DNA from: Terriglobia bacterium
GTDB lineage: Bacteria > Acidobacteriota > Terriglobia > 20CM-2-55-15
Assembly (NCBI GenBank): GCA_965198225.1
Contig: CBDAOY010000005.1
Location: 352,001 to 416,000, forward strand
DNA: 64,000 nucleotides
Direction of reading: 5' to 3'
Shown here piece after piece: positions 35,175-50,803 of this stretch (position 1 is the stretch's first letter; each line of letters opens with the position of its first letter). Below the pieces are notes generated by a model. It had not been told where the DNA came from, made no database searches, and saw nothing but the letters and a program-made list of their open reading frames with translations. The translations under genes were made by a program, and so were the position numbers.

Positions 35175-35320
35175 TATTGCAAATTGGTCATCGGACGAAT
35201 CCACATTGGAAGTTGGAGATCGGAGGTTGCTCAATTTCCTATTGGTCGGATCTGAAATGAAGCAATTTCCAATGAGCAACCTGCAATGCGGACTATTCAA
35301 TATCGCGATTTGCAAATTGG
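35175..35320. repeat. AT-rich imperfect hairpin repeat; right arm recurs inverted at 46510-46581
   Basis: GAAATGAAGCAATTTCCAATGAGCAACCTGCAATGCGGA...TCGCGATTTGCAA. Confidence 0.75.
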
Positions 35321-35383: not shown

Positions 35384-36214
35384 GTGCCCATGCGCCGCTC
35401 CCGAACCCGGATCTGGTCGAGTGTATTCCTGACCGTTCTGTTAACTGCCCCCTGGGCCGCTGCCTTCGGACAAAGTGTCCGGTTCCAGGGGGAGCAGATC
35501 GAGCGTTTCCTGGCTGGAGCACTGATCACGGATATGGAGAGCTCCCTTCAAGGCGTGACCCGGCCACGTAAGGCGACATTGGAGCTCGACGGGACGACCC
35601 ACAACGCAGTCTTCAAGAACATCGACGTCTTCAGGCCGGGCGTGACGACTCTGGGGGGAGGGACGGTCGAGATCGACTTTCAGGACAGCTGGAAAACGGA
35701 AGTCGCCGCATATGAACTCGACAAGCTGATCGGGCTGGGCATGGTGCCGGCGACCGTTTCGAGGGTTTACTCTCGACAGCGCGGATCCATGCAATGGTGG
35801 GTCGACAGCATAATGACCGAGTACGATCGAGTGAGCCAGGGCGTGCCGGTTCCGAACGGCGAAGCCTGGAACCGGCAACTCTACAAAGTTCGGCTCTTCG
35901 ACAACCTGATCTACAACGTCGACCGGCACCTGGGCAACGTGCTGATCACAGAAGACTGGCGGGTCTGCCTGATCGATCACTCCAGGACGTTTCGCCGGCG
36001 GACCGAGTTGCGTGCGCCGGACGATCTCAAGCGGTTCTCGAGATCGTTGCTTAGGGCGATCGAGCTCCTGGACGAAGACATATTGAGGGAAACGCTCGGC
36101 GCCTACCTCACCGGCACACAGATCCGGGCGATGCTCGAAAGGCGCGACAAGATACTCGCTCTGGCAAAGGAGAGGGTGCAGGAACAGGGGCAGGAGAGAA
36201 CACTTTATCCGTAG
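35384..36214 (+). CDS. Secreted PI3K/PI4K- or Fam20-like atypical kinase (paralog 1)
   Basis: Signal peptide (..LLTAPWAAAFG/Q); GVT loop, VFK, EVAAY, DRHLGN catalytic loop, LIDH. Confidence 0.85.
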   Translation: MPMRRSRTRIWSSVFLTVLLTAPWAAAFGQSVRFQGEQIERFLAGALITDMESSLQGVTRPRKATLELDGTTHNAVFKNIDVFRPGVTTLGGGTVEIDFQDSWKTEVAAYELDKLIGLGMVPATVSRVYSRQRGSMQWWVDSIMTEYDRVSQGVPVPNGEAWNRQLYKVRLFDNLIYNVDRHLGNVLITEDWRVCLIDHSRTFRRRTELRAPDDLKRFSRSLLRAIELLDEDILRETLGAYLTGTQIRAMLERRDKILALAKERVQEQGQERTLYP

Positions 36215-40055: not shown

Positions 40056-41342
40056 TCACGCCCGGATTTCCGAAGCAAGGATATCGATCGCCTTGTCCAG
40101 TTGACGCGGCATGATGTAGTAGGGACACGAAAAACGGATCGAAGCCTGCTCTCCGTCTCTGCCGTCGGAAATATTGAACCAGACTCGGTGCTCCTTCCAT
40201 ATTGCCTCGCCGCGAGCTCTGAGCTTCTCGATCGGTATCCGCACCTTGACCATCGCGGCCGCCAGGTCCGGCGGTGGACCGCTCATGAATGAAACGTCAC
40301 CCACTTCGTGGATCTTTCGACGGACGTAATTGGCCAGGTATTGATGCCTCTGGTGGATCGTTTCCGGACCGAGCTGTTCGGCAAACTCGATCGCGGTTTC
40401 AAGACCGGCCAGGACGGTCGTGTTCGAGGTTCCGATCGTGCTCAATCGTTCGACGCCGAGTTCGGGCCTGTCCCAATTGCTGGAGACGGTGTGTCCCCAG
40501 AGTCGGTCGGCCATTCCCTGGCGGCAATACAGAAACCCGGTACCTTTGGGAGCGAACAACCATTTGTGCGGGCTGCTGGCGTAGAAATCACAGCCGAGTG
40601 AGTGCATGTCCAGCGGCAACTGTCCCATGGCATGGGCGCCATCGATCACACTGATGATGCCGCGGTCGCGGGCCAGGCGGGATATCTCACGAACCGGCAG
40701 CATCCCCCCCGTCGACGTCGTGATGTGGCTGATGCTGATCACTTTCGTGCGGGGGGTGATCGCGTCCTCGACGGCCTGCAGGATCTCGGCGGGACTCTCA
40801 GGAGGTACAGGTATCTTGAAATAGCGCACCGCGATACCGTAGCGCTTCTCGCGCTGCAGCCACGGACTGCGCCCCCCGGGATGTTCCTGGTCGCTGAGGA
40901 GCACTTCGTCTCCGGCTTCGAGTTCCAAACCAGTCCCGACCGTGTTCATCCCCTCCGTGGCGTTCCGCGTCAGAGCGATTTCGTCGGGATCCGCACCCAC
41001 GAACGCTGCAATCTTGGTGCGCGTATTCAGCGTCGTGTTGGCATACCCCCACCACGGGTAGGTATTGAATTCGCGATCCTCGAAGCTCTCCGTGTCGTGC
41101 AGATGGCGAATCATACGATCGACGACCGGACGCGGCGATATTCCCAGGCTTCCGTTGTTGAGGTAGATCACGTCTTCGGGGTGTGAGAACTGCCCTCGCA
41201 CGACCTCCCAGAATCGCTCGTCCTGCGGCAGCGCACCGGGACGAGGCGTCGCTCCGAGCGGCTCTCCCAGTGCGCCGAGCGCTGTCGTCGCTGGGAGCGC
41301 AGTCGTCGCTCCCACCAGAGACAAAAAGTGTCGACGGTCCAT
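40056..41342 (-). CDS. Tat-exported class V PLP aminotransferase-fold protein (isopenicillin-N-epimerase-like)
   Basis: MDRRHFL Tat motif; YLNNG, NATEG, DGAH, SPHKW (PLP Lys). Confidence 0.88.
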   Translation of the reverse strand: MDRRHFLSLVGATTALPATTALGALGEPLGATPRPGALPQDERFWEVVRGQFSHPEDVIYLNNGSLGISPRPVVDRMIRHLHDTESFEDREFNTYPWWGYANTTLNTRTKIAAFVGADPDEIALTRNATEGMNTVGTGLELEAGDEVLLSDQEHPGGRSPWLQREKRYGIAVRYFKIPVPPESPAEILQAVEDAITPRTKVISISHITTSTGGMLPVREISRLARDRGIISVIDGAHAMGQLPLDMHSLGCDFYASSPHKWLFAPKGTGFLYCRQGMADRLWGHTVSSNWDRPELGVERLSTIGTSNTTVLAGLETAIEFAEQLGPETIHQRHQYLANYVRRKIHEVGDVSFMSGPPPDLAAAMVKVRIPIEKLRARGEAIWKEHRVWFNISDGRDGEQASIRFSCPYYIMPRQLDKAIDILASEIRA

Positions 41343-41378
41343 ATTCCACCTCCGTTTTTTTTGGGAAAGCGCTGGGCG

Positions 41379-41403
41379 CTAGTGACCTGTTACAGGCCAC
41401 TCG
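41379..41403. mobile_element. 25-bp empty/fused-end form (reverse orientation)
   Basis: CTAGTGACCTGTTACAGGCCACTCG = reverse complement of 15654-15678 with one mismatch. Confidence 0.7.
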
Positions 41404-41527
41404 TTTGCGAGCGATTCTACCACCGAATCGATGCCGACTCTCCGCGCGGACAGGTCGAACGGAATCGACAAAATGGTACTGTTCCCCGGGTAAACTTCGC
41501 CCCTGTTGACATCCCACCATCTATCGC

Positions 41528-41556
41528 TTGACACCCTACCCCGCCCTCCCTACCAT
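41528..41556 (+). promoter_or_regulatory. sigma70 promoter for the kinase-phosphatase-NTT operon
   Basis: TTGACA-N17-TACCAT. Confidence 0.6.
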
Positions 41557-41626
41557 GCAGGCAACCGTATCTCAGTGACAGAAAAGGATGTACGGGTCGA
41601 TGTCGGCTCGCAAGGAGATCCCCTCC

Positions 41627-42448
41627 ATGAATAGTACGAACTGCCGCATGAGAACCCTACTGGCGCTTCTGGCGTTGGGCCCGATCGCCTCCTGGACCAG
41701 CGCCCAGGAGGGCGTGAAGTTCCAGGGGCCGGAGATCGAGCAGTTCATGGCCGAAGCCTCGATCACGGGGATGGTCGACATCGGAGAGGGCGTCACGCGA
41801 CCGCAGAAGGCGACGCTGGAACTTGACGGGGAAACGCAACACGGCGTTTTCAAAACCGTCGACATCTTCCGCGAAGGTATGACGAGGGTCGGCGACACCA
41901 TGGAGATGAACTTCCAGGATAGCTACAAGACCGAGATCGCGGCTTATGAAATCGATCGCCTGATCGGGCTCGGTATGGTGCCGACAACGCTGGAGAGGTC
42001 GTACCGCGGGGATATGGGATCTCTGCAATGGTGGGTCGAGAGCGAAATGTCGGAGGCCGACAGGGCACAGGGCCGCATCCTGCCGCCGGACCGCCAGAGC
42101 TGGGGTCGGATGATGTCGAAGGTCCGGCTCTTCGACAGCCTGATCTACAACACGGACCGCCATCAACGGAACATCCGGATCACGAAGGACTGGATCATCG
42201 TCCTGATCGATCATTCACGTGCCTTCCGTACCGAAAAGGAGTTGCGAGAGCCTGAGCGGATCACGCTATTCTCCAGGTCGTTGCTGGAGAATATTGCTAG
42301 ACTGGACGAAGATACGTTGAAGGACCGTGTCGGAAGGCACCTGACGATCTTTCAGATCCGAGCCGTGCTGGCCCGACGTGATCTTCTACTCGAACGAGCC
42401 AAAGAACTGGTCGCCGAACGGGGAGAGGAAAGGGTCCTTTTCCCCTGA
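41627..42448 (+). CDS. Secreted PI3K/PI4K- or Fam20-like atypical kinase (paralog 2)
   Basis: AAGGAG RBS; signal peptide MNSTNCRMRTLLALLALGPIASWTSA/Q; GEGVT, VFK, EIAAY, DRHQRN, LIDH. Confidence 0.85.
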   Translation: MNSTNCRMRTLLALLALGPIASWTSAQEGVKFQGPEIEQFMAEASITGMVDIGEGVTRPQKATLELDGETQHGVFKTVDIFREGMTRVGDTMEMNFQDSYKTEIAAYEIDRLIGLGMVPTTLERSYRGDMGSLQWWVESEMSEADRAQGRILPPDRQSWGRMMSKVRLFDSLIYNTDRHQRNIRITKDWIIVLIDHSRAFRTEKELREPERITLFSRSLLENIARLDEDTLKDRVGRHLTIFQIRAVLARRDLLLERAKELVAERGEERVLFP

Positions 42449-42465
42449 CGGAAGTCAAAGATTGA

Positions 42466-43725
42466 ATGGTTCTTAGATCCCTAACGAAACGCGATCTCGG
42501 CCGAACCCCGCTGGCGGTCCTGCTGCTTCTGGCACTGGCGTCGGTCGTCTTTTCCGGTGTCCTTGCCGGCGAACGCATCGTGTCGATGGCCGACATCCAC
42601 GGCAATTACGCTTCGGCAACCGCGCTTCTGCGAAAGACCGGCCTGATCGACGACGAAGCGCGGTGGGTCGGCGGCAAGACCACGTTTGTCCAGACCGGAG
42701 ACTATACCGACCGGGGTCCCGAGGTACGACGGGTGATGGACCTCCTGATGGATCTCGAAGAACAGGCGCAGAAGGCTGGTGGGCGAGCTGTCGTCCTGAT
42801 CGGCAACCACGAGATCATGAATATCATCGGCGAGTTGGTGGACGTCACAGAGGCCGACTACGCCAGCTTCGTCGACTCGCGATCCGAAGACCGACGGCAA
42901 GACGCTTATGAAGACTTCCTGAAGTTCGAGAAGCGCCGCGCGGAAAAGCTCGACCTGCCCTCACCAGCGCCCACGCCCGAAACCGAAGCCGCCTGGATGG
43001 CGGCGCATCCGCCGGGGTTCGTCGAACACCGCGAAGCATTCTCCTCGAAAGGCCGGTACGGGAAATGGTTGCGCGAACTTCCGGTCATTGCGAAAGAAGA
43101 AGACGTCATCTTCATGCATGCCGGCATCAACCCGCTTCTGTCCGAGATTTCGATCAAAGACCTCAACGCGCGAGTTCAGGAAGAACTCCGGGCTTTCGAC
43201 CAGTACAAGCAATACCTGGTCGATCGAGAACTGGCCCTCCCTTTCTTCACGCTGGGGGAACTGATCCGAGCGACGCAGGATGATCTCGAGAAGAGGCGAG
43301 CGCGCATCGCACGAGAGACGGCGGCGGAGGAGGAGGACGGGAAGACCTACTCTCCGCCCCGCGACGAGCAAAACCATATGAACGTGCTCGAAACCATCCT
43401 CGGGATGGGCAGCTGGCTGATCATCCATGAAGACGGCGTGCTCTGGTACCGGGGGTTTGCGCAGTGGAACGAAGTCGAGGGCGCCGCCGGTATCGAAAAA
43501 CTTCTCGACGCGTACGACGCCGATCATTTTGTCGTCGGACATACGCCGCAGGTTGGCGGACGCATACAGTCCCGCTTCGACGGCAAAATATTCCTGGCGG
43601 ATACCGGTATGCTGTCGAGCGTGTACCGCGGCGGCCAAGCCTCGGCGCTGGAATTCCAGGATGGCGCAATTCGGGCGATCTACCTGGATCGGGACCCCGT
43701 ACAGCTATATCCTTCCGCCCACTAG
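42466..43725 (+). CDS. Secreted calcineurin-like/PPP metallophosphoesterase (Shewanella-like phosphatase type)
   Basis: Signal peptide; DIHG, GDYTDRG, GNHE, HAG, GHT, ADTGM. Confidence 0.9.
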   Translation: MVLRSLTKRDLGRTPLAVLLLLALASVVFSGVLAGERIVSMADIHGNYASATALLRKTGLIDDEARWVGGKTTFVQTGDYTDRGPEVRRVMDLLMDLEEQAQKAGGRAVVLIGNHEIMNIIGELVDVTEADYASFVDSRSEDRRQDAYEDFLKFEKRRAEKLDLPSPAPTPETEAAWMAAHPPGFVEHREAFSSKGRYGKWLRELPVIAKEEDVIFMHAGINPLLSEISIKDLNARVQEELRAFDQYKQYLVDRELALPFFTLGELIRATQDDLEKRRARIARETAAEEEDGKTYSPPRDEQNHMNVLETILGMGSWLIIHEDGVLWYRGFAQWNEVEGAAGIEKLLDAYDADHFVVGHTPQVGGRIQSRFDGKIFLADTGMLSSVYRGGQASALEFQDGAIRAIYLDRDPVQLYPSAH

Positions 43726-43740
43726 CGTCCCCGATCATTC

Positions 43741-46503
43741 ATGTCGCACTGGGTTGAACGACTGTTGAACTTGCGCCGTGGCGACCTGGCCCGCGGCATC
43801 CTCTTCTTTGCCTATTACTTCCTGATCGTCGCGAGCTACGTGGTCGGCAAGATCGGCCGAGATGCTCTTTTTCTGGACCGGTTCGCGCCGGATCAGCTTC
43901 CCTACGTCGACATATCCATCGCCGTGTTGGTGGGCTTCGTCATCGCAGCCTACATCCGTGCCGGCCACCGGGTCGGAATGCACAAACTGTTGACCGGAAG
44001 CTTGATCTCCTTCGCAGGCATCGCGGTCTTCTTCTGGTGGGCGTTCATCAGCTTCCGATGGGACTGGCTCTTCCCGGCGCTCTATATCTGGGTCGGTATC
44101 TTCGGTGTACTTGCCATCACGCAGGTGTGGACTCTGGCCAACTTCATGTTGACCACACGCGAGGCCAAGCGCCTGTTCGGCCTGGTCGGCAGCGGGGGGA
44201 TCCTCGGCGGTATTTTCGGGGGCTTCATATCGAACTCCACGGCGCGTAACCTCGGGACTGAGAGCCTGCTGCTGGTCCTGGCGCTGTTCCTCGGCATCTG
44301 CGTCGTCCTGGTGCTGCTGATCTGGCGACAACACCAGGCCGAGGTCCCGGAAGACGAGCCTCTGGTGCCGATCGCCGAAGGTCCGCGAAACTTGTTCGAG
44401 AGCTTTCGGTTGATGCTGTCCTCGCGGCACCTCACCTCGATCGCCGCTCTGATATGCGTGACGTCGATCGTCACGACCGCGGCCGGGTGGCAGTTCAAGG
44501 CCATAGCGAAGGAAACGATTGTCGAAACGGATGCGCTCGCCGCATTCTTCGGTTCGTTTCAGGGGTACGCCGGCGCTCTCTCGCTTGCAGCTCAGCTGTT
44601 GCTGACCTCGCGTATTCTCCAACGGTTCGGCGTGGGACTCGCACTGTTCATCCTGCCCGTGACGCTGACGCTGGGTTCAGCAGGTGTCCTCGTTTTTGGC
44701 GGCATCTGGGCGGCCACGTTCCTCAAGGGAAGCGACAATGTCCTGCGGTATTCGATCGACACTTCCGCCCTCCAACTGCTCTACCTGCCGGTTCCGTCGT
44801 CCGTCAAGATGCAGGTCAAATCGTTGATCGATACCGTCATCTGGAGGTTCGGGGACGGGTTCGCAGGTCTTACTCTGCTGGTGTTCGCGACCTTCCTGAA
44901 CTTCACGCCGAGTCAGATCAGCTGGGTCAACCTGGTTTTCCTCGGCCTCTGGTTTGTCCTCGCCGACATCGCACGCCGGCAATATGTCGCGACTCTTGGA
45001 GAACGGATCCAGGAGCATCGCATCGACGCCGAGAGCGCCGCCGCACCCGTCCTCGACAGATCGACTACGTCGATCATGGCTTCCAAGCTGGATTCGGCAG
45101 ACACCGAGGAGATCCTCTACGGATTGAGCCTGTTCGAAGTGGGGTACCACCAGACGTCCCATCCATCGATGCGAGGGCTCATCAAACACCCCTCGCCCGA
45201 AGTCCGTGCGAAGGCCCTGGCGATCTTGAACGCTGGGGGGGACCGATCGGTGGCTGACGACGTGGAAGAACTGCTGAGGGACGACGACCTCCAGGTCCGT
45301 ACCGAGGCCTTACTCTACCTCGCCCATCACTCGCACATCGACCCCGTCGCGCGCATTCAGGAGATCGTCGACTTTCCGGAGCACACGGTTCGTTCATCGA
45401 TCGCCGCGTTTCTGGCTCGCCCGGGAAATGCCCAGAACCTCGAAGTATCTCGGATGATGCTGGACATGATGATCGACGAAGCGGGACCCGACGGAAAACA
45501 GGTACGGCTGGAGGCGGCGCGGCTGATCGGGACGATGCCTGAGGATTTCGAAGAACAGCTGGCACGCTCGCTGCGCGACAAAGACCCGGAAATCGCCCGC
45601 GAAGCGATCCAGGCAGCCGGCCGACTCGGGAAACGTCGGTTCGTGCCGGACCTGCTCGAGCATTTGTCGGTTCCCGACTGTCGGGAATCGGCCACGGAAT
45701 CTCTGGCTGGGTTCGGCAATCGGATTCTCGGAACACTCCGGGACTACATGGCCGATGAAGAGATCCCGATAGAGGTCCGGCGCCAGATCCCAATGGTTAT
45801 GGTCGTCCTCGGCAGCGAAGAGGCCCAGGCTCTGCTGGTCGAAAACCTGTTCCAGGGTAACTCCGAGTTGCGATTCCGGATCATCTCCGCACTCAACAAG
45901 TTTCGAAACGGCCACCCCGAGATCAGGCTCGACACTCAGATGGTCGAGACGGTACTGGCGGCAGAGATCCTCGGACACTACCGGTCCTACCAGGGCCTGG
46001 GCGCGCTGGCCGGAAAACTCGATCGCGAAGACCCTGCCATGCGGGCGCTCGCGGAGTCGATCGACCAGGAGGTGGAACGAATCTTCCGGCTGCTCGGAAT
46101 ACTGTTCCCCAAACACGACCTCCACGCGGCGCATATCGGGCTTCGTGCCGGTGACTCCGTCGTTCACGACAACGTGCTGGAGTTCCTCGACAACACGCTG
46201 CGGCCCGAGTTGAGAGAGCTGTTGGTTCCGTTGGTCGACAGCGGAATTCGGCTCGAGGAACGTGTCCGTCGCGCCGACGCCCTGCTTGGCACCAGGGTGG
46301 AAACGTCCGAAGAGGCCGTCTCGATGCTGATCCACAGCGGCGATCCGTGGTTGCGTTCTTGCGCTGCATACGCGATTGGCGCCCTCGGACTCCGATCGAT
46401 GGAAGCGGAGTTGGAGGCCTGGGAAAATGACCCGGACCCGTTGCTGGTCGAAACGGTGCGGCAGGCCAGGGAAAAGCTGTCTACGGGCGCAGCGGGGGAC
46501 TAG
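43741..46503 (+). CDS. TLC/NTT (Npt1/Npt2-like) nucleotide translocase domain fused to HEAT repeats
   Basis: RDALFL, WTLAN...EAKRLFG, LRYSID...LLYLP...KSLID...RFGD over ~12 TM; HEAT-like VRAKAL, VRTEAL, DPWLRSCAAYAIG. Confidence 0.85.
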   Translation: MSHWVERLLNLRRGDLARGILFFAYYFLIVASYVVGKIGRDALFLDRFAPDQLPYVDISIAVLVGFVIAAYIRAGHRVGMHKLLTGSLISFAGIAVFFWWAFISFRWDWLFPALYIWVGIFGVLAITQVWTLANFMLTTREAKRLFGLVGSGGILGGIFGGFISNSTARNLGTESLLLVLALFLGICVVLVLLIWRQHQAEVPEDEPLVPIAEGPRNLFESFRLMLSSRHLTSIAALICVTSIVTTAAGWQFKAIAKETIVETDALAAFFGSFQGYAGALSLAAQLLLTSRILQRFGVGLALFILPVTLTLGSAGVLVFGGIWAATFLKGSDNVLRYSIDTSALQLLYLPVPSSVKMQVKSLIDTVIWRFGDGFAGLTLLVFATFLNFTPSQISWVNLVFLGLWFVLADIARRQYVATLGERIQEHRIDAESAAAPVLDRSTTSIMASKLDSADTEEILYGLSLFEVGYHQTSHPSMRGLIKHPSPEVRAKALAILNAGGDRSVADDVEELLRDDDLQVRTEALLYLAHHSHIDPVARIQEIVDFPEHTVRSSIAAFLARPGNAQNLEVSRMMLDMMIDEAGPDGKQVRLEAARLIGTMPEDFEEQLARSLRDKDPEIAREAIQAAGRLGKRRFVPDLLEHLSVPDCRESATESLAGFGNRILGTLRDYMADEEIPIEVRRQIPMVMVVLGSEEAQALLVENLFQGNSELRFRIISALNKFRNGHPEIRLDTQMVETVLAAEILGHYRSYQGLGALAGKLDREDPAMRALAESIDQEVERIFRLLGILFPKHDLHAAHIGLRAGDSVVHDNVLEFLDNTLRPELRELLVPLVDSGIRLEERVRRADALLGTRVETSEEAVSMLIHSGDPWLRSCAAYAIGALGLRSMEAELEAWENDPDPLLVETVRQAREKLSTGAAGD

Positions 46504-46509
46504 GTAAGT

Positions 46510-46581
46510 CCGATTGCAAATCGCGATATTTGAGTAATCCGCATTGCAGGTTGCTCATTGGAGATTGCTTCATTTCAAATC
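46510..46581. repeat. Inverted copy of the 35249-35320 arm
   Basis: TTGCAAATCGCGATATT...CCGCATTGCAGGTTGCTCATTGG.ATTGCTTCATTTCA. Confidence 0.8.
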
Positions 46582-46622
46582 TTTGAGAACCAGTTTCGCC
46601 CAGATGGCGTAAGGAGGAACTC

Positions 46623-47591
46623 ATGCGATGCCGATTGTTTCTGATCACGCTGACCGTGCTGGTCGCCCTCAGCCTCGTGATCACCCCCGCGTCGAGAGGC
46701 CAGATGGGCCACATGAACAAGGTGGTCGACCTGCTCGAAAGCGGTCAGTCGATTTTTGGATCCTTCTCGGGATCACACGACGCGGCGGGCGCGGCGCAGA
46801 CGATCCAGAACCGGGATCTGGACTTCGTCTTCTACTCGATGGAAGCTCTCGGGCAGTACAACATCCCCAACCTCCGGGCGTTCATCCAGTTCATGAACGT
46901 GGCGGGCGTGATGGAGAACCGGTACGACATCCGCACGGAGTATCCGCTGCTGGTTCGGATTCCGCCGCTCGAGGACGACCGCGCGGCAGGTCCGCGGCGG
47001 GTGGGAGAGGTTCTCAACGCGGGGGCGCACGGCGTCGTCTTCCCACAGCTCAACTCCCCGGAAGATGCGAAGCTGGCGATCGATTCGATGAGGTACTCGG
47101 AGCTGCGCCAGACGCCGCAGGCTCGAGGACGCGGGGGTCGAGGCCGCGGAGGTCGAGGCGGACGTGGCGGGCGGGGAGCGGTCGCGCCGACGCCGATTCC
47201 AGCGGCTTCCTACTGGGGAATGTCCCAGGAAGAATACAGGGAACGCGCCGACGTCTGGCCCATCAACCCCAACGGTGAGTTGGTAAACATGTTTCTCATC
47301 GAAAACCAGGAGGGCATCGGGCACGCGAGGGAGATCGTTCGGACGCCGGGTGTCAGCATCGCTGTTCCCGGTCCAGGCGACCTCCGCCAGGCATACGAGG
47401 GCGACATGGAAGCGGTCGAGAATGCCATCCAGACGGTACTGGCAGCCTGCAAGGAGTTCGACGTCGCGTGCGGCATCACGGCGAATACGAATGACATCGA
47501 ACGGCGCCTATCTGAAGGTTTCCGGGTGATCATCGCCAACGCGGAAGCGAACCGCCTCGGGATGCGGGCGGCGGGACGACGAGACGACTAG
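46623..47591 (+). CDS. Signal-peptide HpcH/HpaI aldolase-fold protein with RGG-rich insert
   Basis: LLVRIP, GAHGVVFP, LIE...I...PGV...GPGDL; AAGGAGG RBS. Confidence 0.8.
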   Translation: MRCRLFLITLTVLVALSLVITPASRGQMGHMNKVVDLLESGQSIFGSFSGSHDAAGAAQTIQNRDLDFVFYSMEALGQYNIPNLRAFIQFMNVAGVMENRYDIRTEYPLLVRIPPLEDDRAAGPRRVGEVLNAGAHGVVFPQLNSPEDAKLAIDSMRYSELRQTPQARGRGGRGRGGRGGRGGRGAVAPTPIPAASYWGMSQEEYRERADVWPINPNGELVNMFLIENQEGIGHAREIVRTPGVSIAVPGPGDLRQAYEGDMEAVENAIQTVLAACKEFDVACGITANTNDIERRLSEGFRVIIANAEANRLGMRAAGRRDD

Positions 47592-47683: not shown

Positions 47684-47763
47684 CTCCCCTCCTTGGTCAT
47701 CAAGGAGGGGTGGCGCGAAGCGCCGGGGTGGTTCGACCAACGGACAACCAACAACGGCCTACG
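47684..47763. repeat. Additional hairpin (CTCCCCTCCTTG...CAAGGAGGGG-TGGCGCGAAGCGCC) plus heptamer arm (CAACGGCCTACG)
   Basis: Hairpins read directly; arm matches the 7307-7630 family. Confidence 0.65.
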
Positions 47764-47765
47764 TC

Positions 47766-50635
47766 CTAACGCTCCCTCGCCAGATCCGCCTCCGCCGCGA
47801 TGAAGCCGAACGCGGCCCATTGTGAACCCTTAACGATCGTCTCCAGGACTTCCTGCGCGCGTTCGGGCTGCCCGTTGGCCCGGTACCAGCTCGCGACGGC
47901 GTAGCCGTAGGTTGCACTCGCCAGACCGCCGGCAGTCGTGGCGAGCAGGTCCGATGCTTCCTTCTCGCCCTTGTAGACCAGCAGTCGATCCAGGTATGCG
48001 GTATTTTCGATGACCTGGATGTCGGCGTGGATCGGACGCAGGATCTGCTCCGCGTCCTCGCTGCGGCCGAGCGCGTCAGTGCCAGGTAGAGCCAGTCCGT
48101 CGACGCGACCAGCCTGTCGTTGCTCCCGAGTCCGGAGAACTTCAGACACTCGCGAAAGCTCCGTTCAGCTTCCTGGAAGTCACCTTGGAAGTAGTAGGCC
48201 AAACCCAGGTGATACCAGATGTTGAAATGAGACGTGCTCACCGGTGTGTTCTCGGCGTTCGGCAACCCATCGGGCTCGACCTCGTCGGGCACGCCGGCGA
48301 TCAGCGTGGTCGCGAGTTCCAGGTCCGCAGCGGCTTTGTCGAACTGACGTGTCGTCAGGTAGCGGTGCCCGCGATGCCGCAGCAGTTTGTAACTGTCGGG
48401 ATGCTTATCGATCCCGCGCGAATAGACAGCGATGGCATCCCGATAACGGCCCAGGTAGGCCATGCGCCGTCCGACCCAGATGATCCTCTCTTCGTCCTCC
48501 GGATCCAGCGCAAACTCCGCGGTCGCGGCATTGAGGTTGTCTTCGAATCTCTTTCGGGTATCGACGTCCAGGACGACCGGAAAGAGAGGTACGCCGAGCA
48601 ACGATGTGGCCTCTGGGGTTCTTCCCTTCTCCTCGTTCGAGGTCACCTTCTCCGGCCGCAAAAACCGGTCGTACCACGCGATGTACCGGTTGTAGCGGTC
48701 CACCTGGTAGCTGGGCTTCCGGATACCGTGATTCTGACCGGGATAGATCACCAACTCGGTTTCCCGGCCGAGTCTCCGCAACGCCTGGTACATCTGCTCG
48801 GAGTTCAGAGTCGGCACGTTCATGTCTTCCGCACCGCCCATCAACAGGGTCGGCGTCACGATCTCGTCGACCCGGAACCATGGCGAGATCTTCATCCAGA
48901 GATCGGTGTTCCGCCACGGAAGACCGAGTTCGGCTTCCCACTGGCGCTGGTAGTGGTCGGTCCCGTAGTTCGACAGGTAGTTCACCTCGCTTGCACCCGA
49001 GATCGCGGCCTTGAAACGAGCGGTTTGCGTGATGACATAGTTGGTGAGGATGCCGCCGTAACTCCACCCCCCGACACCCAGGCGATCCGGATCCCCAACG
49101 CCCATTTCGATCGCTCGGTCGAGGGCCGACATCACATCCTGGAAGTCCTTGTTGCCCCAATCGGCCCAGATGGCGTAGCTGAAGTCGCGGCCGTAGCCGG
49201 AGGATCCCCGCGGGTTGGCGGCCACCACGGCATACCCCTGGGCGGCGAGGATCTGCCATTCCACATTGAACGCCGGGGTGAACTGCGAAACCGGACCGCC
49301 GTGAATGCGCAGAAGCAGCGGAAGCCTCTCTCCCTCGGGCGCGTCCGCCGGCCGCGTCAGGAAGGCATCGATCATGGTTCCGTCGGCGCTTCTGGCACGA
49401 ATCCGTTCAACGTCACCGAGTTGGATACCTTCCAGGAACTGGTCGTTCGCACGAGAGATCCGCTCGAGCAAACCGTCTTCGACGCGAGAAACTTCATAGG
49501 GCTGGTGGGGCTGGCTCTGGAGGACAATCGTTTCCCCTCCTGCGGCCATGTCGAACTGACGGATGCTCAACTCGCCGTCGATGACTCGTTCGACATCGCC
49601 GCCTGCGACCGGGACTCGTGCGAGATGGTTGTTCCCGCCGTCCTCCAGCAGAAAGTAGATCCATTCGCCCGATGGATCGAACCGAGGGCGGCGCCCGTTT
49701 CGATCCAGTTCCAGCGTCAACGCCCTGCTGGACGAGCCGTCCAAAGAGACGACGGCCAGGTGGCTGACCGCGTACCAGATGTCTTCCGGGGCCCCTCCGG
49801 CAACGTAGACAATGGATTGACCGTCGGGGCTGAACGCGGGTGACGAATCGGTGCCCGGCGATGTGGTCAGCGCGCGGGGGGGCTGGCCGGGGACGGCACG
49901 CACGATGAAGATGTCGTTGTTGGCGTTGGAATCCGGCTCCTCTGTGCGGTTGCTGACAAAGGCCACCCATTCTCCGTCGGGCGACCAGACGGGACTGGAG
50001 TCGTCATAGGGTCCGTCGGTAATCTGCGTGGGTTCCTTTTCTTCGATGTCGAAGACGTAGATGTGGCGACGACGCTCGTCAAGATACCCCTGTCCATCCC
50101 GCTTGAACTGCAACCGGCGGACGACGATGGGGTCCTCGGCTTTGTCCTCCTCCTCCTCCTCCTCGTCGGCGGCATCCGGATCCTCGTCGCGGATGATCAG
50201 CGCCAGACGGCCGCCGTCGGGCGACCAGGTGAAGCCGGAAACACCGGGCTTGATGTCGGTGAGCTTCTTCGCCTCCCCTCCACGTCGGTCCAGCAGCCAT
50301 ACCTGATTGGTGTCGCCTTCCCGACCGGACAGAAACGCCAGGTATCGGCCGTCGGGGCTCCATCGCGGAGAATTCTCGCTCTTCGGGCTCGATGTCACCT
50401 GAAGCGTGTCCTCGCCGTCGAGCGACACCATGTAGATGTCGGTGTCCGAGTTGTCTTCCTGGGAATTCATCTGTGAGACCGTGTAGGCGACCCACCGGGC
50501 GTCGGGGCTGATACGCGGGTCGCCGACCGTCTTCAGCTCGAAGATGTCGTCGACCGACATCAGTCGTCTCTCCTGAGCCCCAAGAGCGGTCGCCAGCAGC
50601 AGCGCGAAGGTCACGGACAGGGCACTTCGTTTCAT
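47766..50635 (-). CDS. Secreted S9 (prolyl oligopeptidase/acylaminoacyl) peptidase fused to a TPR domain; apparent 1-bp frameshift at ~48071
   Basis: Signal peptide, PD40-like WSPDG repeats, IHGGP, GWSYGG, D...HG; TPR tail continues LGRSEDA...LARER in the alternate frame. Confidence 0.88.
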
Positions 50636-50803
50636 GCTCACCTCTGGTAGAAAAAGCGGTTCAGCCCTGAAACCTAGCGTGTTTCCAGCCAGGAAGCCAA
50701 CGTTTTCCGACCGTTTCAGAGTTGTGATAATCTCCCGTTTGAGCACCACGATGCCGGCGGAGATCGACGCAACAGGCAGGACACACCGAGGGGGTACATC
50801 GTA

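Follow-up and report, generated by a model that had tools for sequence, protein, structure and literature searches.

The 64,000-nucleotide stretch of DNA analysed here (the window; Terriglobia bacterium, assembly GCA_965198225.1, contig CBDAOY010000005.1, positions 352,001 to 416,000) carries three plus-strand genes that are separated by gaps of 17 and 15 bp. The first (longest open reading frame (ORF) 41588..42448, 286 amino acids) encodes a predicted exported atypical kinase resembling Fam20 and type II phosphatidylinositol 4-kinases (PI4K-II). The second (42466..43725, 419 amino acids) encodes an exported or anchored PPP phosphatase of the Shewanella type (Shelph), and the third (43741..46503, 920 amino acids) a nucleotide transporter (NTT) domain followed by HEAT repeats. 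We found that this trio is a real conserved module in Acidobacteriota, and we suggest that it may serve phosphorylation outside the cytoplasm. A preliminary description, made from the letters alone, had reported three tightly spaced genes behind one promoter, and the ORF coordinates agree with the spacing. For the promoter, a sigma-70-like match (TTGACA-17-TACCAT, 41528..41556, +) is present and agrees at 10 of 12 hexamer positions, but it is only a consensus match, and it counts for little since the region holds 2 promoter-type sites against 1.1 +/- 1.0 in shuffled sequences. Translation of the kinase more likely starts at ATG 41627 than at 41588, since a Shine-Dalgarno-like AAGGAG (41612..41617, +; read from the sequence) lies 9 nt before the former and homologs are 271-274 residues long. 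The protein would then have 273 residues (41627..42448), and its motifs are numbered on that basis.

The kinase motifs that had been noted at the outset, VFK, E-x-AAY, DRHxxN and LIDH, were located at residues 74-76 (VFK), 103-107 (EIAAY), 177-182 (DRHQRN) and 193-197 (LIDHS). The best solved sequence relative is the xylosylkinase Fam20B (E 0.004), with the N-lobe and catalytic-loop motifs in register: the catalytic loop DRHQRN (42155..42172, +) aligns with 'NADRHHYE' and the metal-binding IDH (42206-42214, +) with 'LDNAKSFG' of this enzyme. Among 69 homologs D177, N182 and D195 are invariant, while K76 is kept in 66 and E103 in 62. The Pfam scores stay below the cut-offs for PI3_PI4_kinase (PF00454; 17.8 bits against 27.1) and Fam20C (PF06702; 16.4 bits against 26.8), and HipA_2 gave a sub-threshold 15.4 bits. 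An AlphaFold2 model based on the 69 homologs (pLDDT 91, pTM 0.85) has the Fam20-type atypical kinase fold, which is also PI4K-II-like, together with the DRHxxN catalytic loop. A Foldseek comparison, which the preliminary description had proposed against Fam20C, PI4KII and CotH, put Fam20B, Fam20C, Fam20A and PI4K-II on top (E 3e-8 to 1e-6; TM 0.62-0.65 for the Fam20 matches), and CotH is absent from the 50 matches listed. Given the fold ranking, the motif alignment and the conserved catalytic residues, the protein would therefore work like a Fam20/PI4K-II-type kinase, outside both Pfam families by threshold.

The family comprises 6169 representatives at E <= 1e-3, 2917 at 1e-10 and 1046 at 1e-30, and every one of the 120 homologs listed is either unnamed or called 'hypothetical protein'. 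It is chiefly acidobacterial, with a farther cluster tagged Fam20C in Myxococcota. The genome of the window holds six paralogs, one of them truncated, and other genomes show up to 10 matches. A second paralog (35384-36214, +; 276 amino acids) is found 5 kb upstream of the trio; it is about 55% identical and has an N-terminus like a signal peptide, and neither a phosphatase nor a transporter gene adjoins it.

A further relative, P0213 (637 amino acids), combines a Hanks-type Ser/Thr kinase (71-326), a hydrophobic stretch and a Fam20-like kinase domain (373-631). The stretch is moderate, lies under the hydropathy threshold and was judged by eye; if it spans the membrane, P0213 would have one kinase on each side. 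This order places the Fam20-like domain where extracellular sensor domains normally sit, and atypical kinase folds can perform other reactions. Both points would suit a kinase-like domain that is no ATP-dependent kinase but an extracytoplasmic sensor, or one that uses another chemistry or donor (for example AMPylation, or phosphotransfer from lipid or polyphosphate), with the transporter moving some other nucleotide-like cofactor. Transporters of the TLC family have also been characterised with S-adenosylmethionine and NAD as cargo, to judge by reference titles in PMC5381601. However, the catalytic set (Lys, Glu, Asp-x-x-x-x-Asn, metal-binding Asp) is retained in 62-69 of the 69 homologs and aligns with the motifs of active Fam20B, and a pure binding domain would not need it. 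We consider such a role distinctly unlikely.

The phosphatase has the complete PPP metal motifs that had been ascribed to it, namely DIHG (43-46), GDYTDRG (78-84), GNHE (113-116), HAG (218-220), GHT (358-360) and ADTG (378-381), and its metal-binding residues are invariant in 28 orthologs. In the GDxHG motif the first G is replaced by A (ADIHG), with D and H kept. ADTG represents the bacterial (I/L/V)D(S/T)G motif with A for I/L/V, D379 and G381 being invariant. Pfam Metallophos is matched above its cut-off (E 4e-12). The closest solved relatives are cold-active protein-tyrosine phosphatases from Shewanella (2z72, 1v73, 2zbm; E 1e-26), followed by a Rhizobiales-like phosphatase (E 2e-4). The gene is single-copy in this genome and gives 1-3 matches per genome in our phylum sample, which consists of 251 Acidobacteriota genomes. 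A complex prediction for the mature phosphatase and the mature kinase scored 0.00 against a mark of 0.32, a result that gives no verdict either way.

The N-terminus of the phosphatase is weakly similar, far below cut-off, to ApaH/PrpE diadenosine tetraphosphatases and to the phosphatase domain of bacterial Pnkp. The likeness to ApaH-type enzymes might indicate that a small exported molecule for signalling or storage, for instance a dinucleoside polyphosphate or some other phosphorylated metabolite, is made and degraded or otherwise processed by the two enzymes and carried across the inner membrane by the transporter. NTT-HEAT paralogs coupled to cyclic-nucleotide-binding (cNMP-binding) domains also suggest signalling contexts (see also PMC5381601, in extract). 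Yet the closest solved relative is named a protein-tyrosine phosphatase, the Shewanella enzyme has been described as Tyr-specific (PMC535813, in extract), and there is no recurrent biosynthetic gene beside the module among the largest annotated neighbour clusters. An exported small molecule is thus in our opinion quite improbable.

Both enzymes are predicted to leave the cytoplasm. The N-terminus of the kinase shows the parts of a Sec signal peptide, a basic start and then a hydrophobic core, and the putative signal peptide MNSTNCRMRTLLALLALGPIASWTSA precedes QE (41627..41704, +; cleavage site placed by eye). When a 10-residue hydrophobic core within the first 50 residues, with K/R before it, was taken as the test, 109 of 119 kinase homologs passed, while 1 of 119 did so when an interior stretch served as control. 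Such an N-terminus is common to five of the six paralogs of this genome, the sixth being truncated. The phosphatase carries a 19-residue hydrophobic segment (residues 16-34; 42511..42567, +; Kyte-Doolittle mean 2.71) with K/R before it, and orthologs carry an equivalent. It is a signal peptide or, since it is long for a cleaved signal, possibly a signal anchor; in both cases the positive-inside rule would turn the catalytic domain outward. In P0213, the position of the Fam20-like domain, which is the usual one of extracellular sensor domains, is in line with this. We infer a periplasmic or otherwise extracytoplasmic location for kinase and phosphatase from these N-termini; enzymes of the cytoplasm would have refuted the preliminary description, and the signals speak against them.

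Fusion proteins point in the same direction. Among the best 150 representatives of the kinase family, 24 have at least 600 residues, and 22 of these are fusions with an N-terminal Metallophos domain; the other two are a tandem kinase and the Hanks kinase protein P0213. A hydrophobic segment is present at the N-terminus of all 22 fusions and, in 1 of them, in the linker as well. A separate search limited to longer homologs found five, four of them with PF00149. In a 724-residue phosphatase-kinase protein (loci L047/L084), which has a single N-terminal hydrophobic segment, a Ser/Ala/Gly-rich linker replaces the signal peptide of the kinase. In nine genomes of the phylum sample, the open-frame length given for the phosphatase match equals that for the kinase match, which we take to mean one uninterrupted phosphatase-kinase frame. 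A frame of reverse order, kinase-phosphatase (L045/L060), was not counted as a clean fusion, since a hydrophobic segment is retained inside it; a recent read-through or a mistake in the assembly may account for this frame. The fusions show that both enzymes are active on one side of the membrane, in close proximity to each other.

The third gene matches the earlier description of a 12-helix TLC/NTT domain with HEAT repeats. The membrane domain (43741..44973, +; about 12 helices) exceeds the cut-off of Pfam TLC (PF03219; E 1e-14, 54.7 bits against 21), and the remainder (44974..46503, +) is a C-terminal HEAT-repeat domain (HEAT_2, E 7e-24, 84 bits), so that a single ORF of 920 amino acids has the NTT-HEAT fusion architecture. 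With phmmer, the membrane domain finds the Arabidopsis translocator AtNTT1 (9j3j; E 8e-15). Its AlphaFold2 model (pLDDT 87.6) is closest in Foldseek to ATP-bound AtNTT1 (9j3l; TM 0.80, E 5e-12) and reaches TM 0.78 with NTT1 of C. pneumoniae, whereas other proteins of the major facilitator superfamily (MFS) stay at E >= 3e-7, with TM 0.66-0.68 for the best. In the model, the fold is therefore nearer to the NTTs than to other MFS proteins. The HEAT part is probably cytoplasmic, given the basic N-terminus, the even number of helices (about 12) and paralogs in which cNMP-binding domains are fused to the HEAT repeats or encoded next after them. NTT-HEAT fusions have been described as monophyletic, widespread in free-living bacteria and, as of 2017, uncharacterised (PMC5381601, in extract). 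One genome of the phylum sample also encodes a canonical TLC transporter of full length (G267:C54:24385-25833; PF03219, E 5e-173), which differs from the divergent NTT-HEAT type.

In a tree of NTT membrane domains (quick method, midpoint root), the transporter of the window falls into a clade with 36 members, 30 of them enzyme-linked. Transporters that are 'paired' and not linked to the enzymes form the sister clade of 29. These pairs occur at 38 Vicinamibacteria-type loci (L071, L083, L090-L136), where an NTT-HEAT gene stands head-to-head with a second one that is 28-30% identical; another example is G273:C2:1446528-1452064. The two partners belong to separate clades, which suggests a two-transporter unit. 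Seven genomes of the phylum sample with such a pair encode the kinase (7 of 7) and the phosphatase (6 of 7) elsewhere in the genome. A conserved 331-residue neighbour of the paired transporters (L099:8808-9800) was considered as a hidden kinase and rejected, as it is a multi-pass membrane protein with an hhalign probability of 0.1.

A lack of co-occurrence of the trio in other genomes had been named as a refutation in the preliminary description; the three genes do co-occur, by both gene content and gene neighbourhood. Among 60 relatives, the phosphatase and the kinase are each found in 24; 22 have both, 2 the phosphatase only and 2 the kinase only. In the phylum sample the kinase is present in 62 genomes and the phosphatase in 58, with both in 57, the kinase only in 5, the phosphatase only in 1 and neither in 188. 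When the kinase is compared with NTT-HEAT at E <= 1e-60, 49 genomes have both, 13 the kinase only, 10 the transporter only and 179 neither. Ten of the 13 seemingly transporter-less kinase genomes were tested; all ten gave TLC matches, nine of them above cut-off and several beside the enzymes. A family-wide scan found TLC in 75 of the 251 genomes. With both searches combined, the kinase and any TLC gene occur together in 60 genomes, the kinase only in 2 and TLC only in 22, while 167 have neither; the two kinase genomes counted as lacking TLC do show weak TLC matches. The transporter-only counts include an unpublished genome (G105), on which no other claim depends.

The three genes are also neighbours. 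Ten of 20 phosphatase-centred 20-kb loci have all three adjacent, and three have kinase and phosphatase. Out of 80 transporter-centred loci, both enzymes lie within 6 kb in 29, and the kinase only in 4 or the phosphatase only in 2 (cut contigs). Within 3 kb, kinase and phosphatase are found together in at least 28 genomes, kinase and transporter in at least 16, and phosphatase and transporter in at least 19; the transporter lies within 3 kb of either enzyme in at least 23 genomes from 15 families. These are lower bounds, many assemblies being fragmented. Divergent TLC genes adjoin the enzymes as well, as in G222, where about 130 bp separate them. Outside the genus, synteny extends to no other gene of the window, and the order and orientation of the trio vary. 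Since the arrangement recurs across many genomes in which the surrounding synteny is lost, it is well beyond chance.

A secreted DUF5666-like protein of about 120 residues, ending in ...ISKRLSHS, is encoded directly downstream of the kinase at 12 linked loci, in 15 copies (L073:3956-4315 and 14 more, e.g. in L075, L076, L077, L085 and L093). Its hosts are Acidoferrales/Terriglobales-type loci, and none of the unlinked loci carries it. As it is confined to loci with the kinase/phosphatase module, it is a candidate substrate or cofactor. With a query from other lineages it was not found in the genome of the window.

Taken together, we favour a reading in which the three genes make up a single functional unit devoted to extracytoplasmic phosphorylation. 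The kinase, with a minimal Fam20/PI4K-II-type fold, and the Shelph-type phosphatase would be exported via the Sec pathway and would share substrates, which may be protein, glycan or lipid, either in the periplasm or at the outward side of the inner membrane. The NTT-HEAT protein would be an inner-membrane nucleotide antiporter of the ATP/ADP-translocator type which, in a free-living cell, runs outward, as might be expected from high cytosolic ATP. It would supply the kinase with ATP and carry back the ADP that the kinase releases and the phosphate set free by the phosphatase; its gating or regulation would fall to the HEAT domain on the cytoplasmic side. An exported kinase needs a phosphate donor, and the only recurrent partner besides the phosphatase is a homolog of ATP/ADP translocators. 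Solved NTT1 structures include, by entry title, one with ATP (9j3l) and one with ADP and phosphate (9j3m). The products of the cycle, ADP and phosphate, would thus be the known counter-substrates of NTT1. Their release may also explain why the phosphatase is linked to the transporter (19 genomes) at least as often as the kinase is (16). Several kinases and 1-3 phosphatases per genome fit many writers, few erasers and diverse targets. To a periplasmic phosphorylation and dephosphorylation cycle fed by the exchange of ATP for ADP and phosphate through the transporter we assign roughly even odds (about 0.5). What the analysis establishes is the anatomy of the genes, the folds, the conserved catalytic residues, the export signals and the co-occurrence, neighbourhood and fusion of the genes, whereas the compartment, ATP as the donor, the molecule transported, its direction and the writer/eraser relation are inferred. 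More generally, NTT-HEAT proteins of free-living bacteria might export ATP across the inner membrane in exchange for ADP and phosphate, one subfamily in Acidobacteriota powering a periplasmic network of several secreted Fam20-like kinase writers and one Shelph eraser; we offer this only tentatively, as a proposal slightly more apt to fail than to hold.

Several observations weigh against a phosphorylation cycle of this kind. The kinase lies under the curated cut-offs of all Pfam kinase families, and only one of the six kinase paralogs here adjoins the phosphatase and the transporter. In 7 of the 20 phosphatase-centred loci the phosphatase stands alone, and 45 of the 80 transporter-centred loci have neither enzyme within 6 kb; 38 of these have a second, divergently transcribed NTT-HEAT gene instead and 7 have nothing. 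As 22 kinase-less genomes carry TLC genes, the transporter family must have other roles, and in this genome the remaining NTT-HEAT paralogs go with cyclic-nucleotide-binding proteins and not with kinases. Since the genomes under comparison are related to one another, co-occurrence overstates independent support, and we claim no p-value. Transcript data count in favour of the module, within limits: in one RNA library (X14), three short contigs are 100% identical to parts of the kinase gene (41888-42076, 42168-42416) and the phosphatase gene (42496-42707), but none spans a gene junction and DNA carry-over is possible. Three other runs, guessed to be RNA (X18-X20), gave no match to the genes, and the parts left uncovered were not interpreted.

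The transporter loci without enzymes nearby, the TLC genes of kinase-less genomes and several genomes in which kinase and phosphatase are adjacent and the transporter lies elsewhere would all agree with a different view, namely that the two enzymes cooperate and the transporter is a co-inherited neighbour with an unrelated role. However, the linkage involves transporters of different subfamilies (25-75% identity), and gene order and orientation vary among the 23 or more genomes of 15 families that show it. A TLC gene is present in 60 of 62 genomes with the kinase, compared with 22 of 189 without it, and in none of five kinase-less genomes that were tested separately. We regard mere co-inheritance as very improbable.

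Kinase-phosphatase fusions are a hallmark of end-healing enzymes, and this leads to a different reading, in which the module serves periplasmic nucleotide salvage. The enzymes would remodel extracellular nucleotides or breakdown products of nucleic acids, for example by turning 3'-phosphate ends into 5'-phosphate ends as polynucleotide kinase-phosphatases do, and the NTT-HEAT protein would import the resulting nucleotides. The weak similarity of the phosphatase to ApaH/PrpE and to the Pnkp phosphatase domain would be in line with this. So would the finding that characterised NTTs all import nucleotides (PMC5381601, in extract), which at the same time speaks against the outward exchange that we propose. 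On the other hand, the kinase has a Fam20/PI4K-II/HipA-like fold and not that of a P-loop nucleotide kinase, and a periplasmic kinase would need a phosphate donor anyway, so that the ATP problem remains. Moreover, no recurrent nuclease or 5'-nucleotidase was found among the largest annotated neighbour clusters of the 80 loci, and up to 10 kinases with 1-3 phosphatases suit diverse macromolecular targets better than a single metabolic step. Salvage is therefore unlikely in our view, and the outward phosphorylation cycle is the reading that we retain.

The genes around the trio are unrelated to it. Upstream lie a class-V aminotransferase with a Tat signal and a LytS/LytTR-type two-component pair. 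The aminotransferase (40056-41342, -) has a twin-arginine-type N-terminus (MDRRHFLS...) and resembles PvdN, which tailors pyoverdine in the periplasm (E 4e-39, below cut-off). Downstream lie an HpcH/HpaI-like protein and an S9 peptidase. The HpcH/HpaI aldolase-like protein (46623-47591, +) has a signal-peptide-like N-terminus and a Gly/Arg-rich insert, GRGGRGRGGRGGRGGRG, and the synteny of its gene is confined to the genus. In the S9-peptidase/TPR ORF (47759-50749, -), an Arg-rich tail near 48070-48150 appears to be out of frame. A 127-residue ORF in another frame (47766-48149) reads as the true C-terminus, and a relative matches up to residue 893 only; the probable cause is a frameshift or a fault of the assembly.

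Past the transporter gene, the spacer contains a repeat of about 65 nt (46513-46585), which has 64 further matches in the genome. The 39 copies inspected are 86-98% identical, and one lies at about 35253-35315, just upstream of the second kinase paralog. The fold of the repeat is unremarkable (z -1.85), and contigs of other runs match just a 42-nt core. An Rfam scan of 41000-47000 gave nothing beyond one sub-threshold match to a snoRNA model. A known defence system was considered and dismissed, since PADLOC returned weak partial matches to the catalytic loop and the HEAT repeats only.

The preliminary description knew of no account of such a module, and our literature searches turned up none either; they covered NTT-HEAT proteins, bacterial Fam20 and secreted kinases, periplasmic kinases and ATP, and Shewanella-like phosphatases. 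The periplasm is generally regarded as being without ATP supply. Bacterial kinase-like domains are the subject of a 2026 preprint, which reports a PIK-like kinase of the cytosol together with a PAP2 phosphatase; the part of it consulted does not mention Fam20 or PI4K. A review has pointed out that the route of ATP across the inner membrane is unclear, since E. coli has no ATP/ADP translocase (PMC7432876, in extract). The module ties one NTT-HEAT subfamily to exported enzymes that are expected to need and recycle known NTT substrates, and it bears on two questions, the role of NTT-HEAT proteins and ATP-dependent phosphorylation outside the cytoplasm of diderm bacteria. If our reading is true, bacteria would have an equivalent of the phosphorylation that takes place in the Golgi lumen, with a dedicated ATP route to the periplasm. 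Should ATP export fail, the conserved and often fused pair of a predicted secreted kinase and phosphatase would still be new envelope biology.

Among known systems, the kinases Fam20A, Fam20B and Fam20C come closest. Their Lys, Glu, DRH and metal-binding Asp motifs can be aligned with those of the window kinase. Fam20 kinases have a signal peptide and act outside the cytosol, as is predicted for the window kinase. In the eukaryotic ER and Golgi, luminal ATP is brought across the membrane by a dedicated antiporter, and the window kinase, as proposed, would likewise depend on antiporter-carried ATP. However, Fam20 proteins have 350-430 residues compared with about 245 mature residues here, identity is 15-20%, and the Fam20 motif is DRHHYE instead of DRHxxN. 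Unlike Fam20, the window family has no majority cysteine at any position of its 69-sequence consensus and has a PPP phosphatase as its partner, in many cases within one fusion protein. Its ATP would presumably come through an NTT, while the carrier of the Fam20 system is of the SLC35 type. PI4K-IIalpha and PI4K-IIbeta are cytosolic, palmitoylated membrane enzymes of eukaryotes, whereas the window kinase is predicted to be exported, is far smaller and stays below the PF00454 cut-off. CtkA of Helicobacter pylori and HipA/HipT show lower similarity to the kinase than Fam20 and PI4K-II do; CtkA is a host-directed effector, HipA and HipT are toxins of toxin-antitoxin systems, and none has a phosphatase or transporter partner.

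For the phosphatase, the Shewanella enzyme and Shelph are the nearest counterparts, sharing the PPP signature motifs and the bacterial D(S/T)G. The window protein differs by the A in GDxHG and by an additional helical insert, about 85 residues long (roughly 238-321), which lies outside the match to the Shewanella enzyme, and a linkage or fusion with a kinase or an NTT is not mentioned for Shelph in the extract of PMC535813. The transporter has its best fold matches in AtNTT1 and Chlamydia NTT1, at about 17-18% identity to the solved translocators, and it shares the architecture of NTT plus C-terminal HEAT repeats with the fusions of Major et al. 2017 (PMC5381601, in extract). NTT1 belongs to energy parasites and plastids, whereas the window stems from a free-living-type genome of 6.4 Mb and the net direction that we propose is outward. 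In contrast to the NTT-HEAT proteins with a cNMP-binding partner, the subfamily of the window is tied to secreted enzymes instead.

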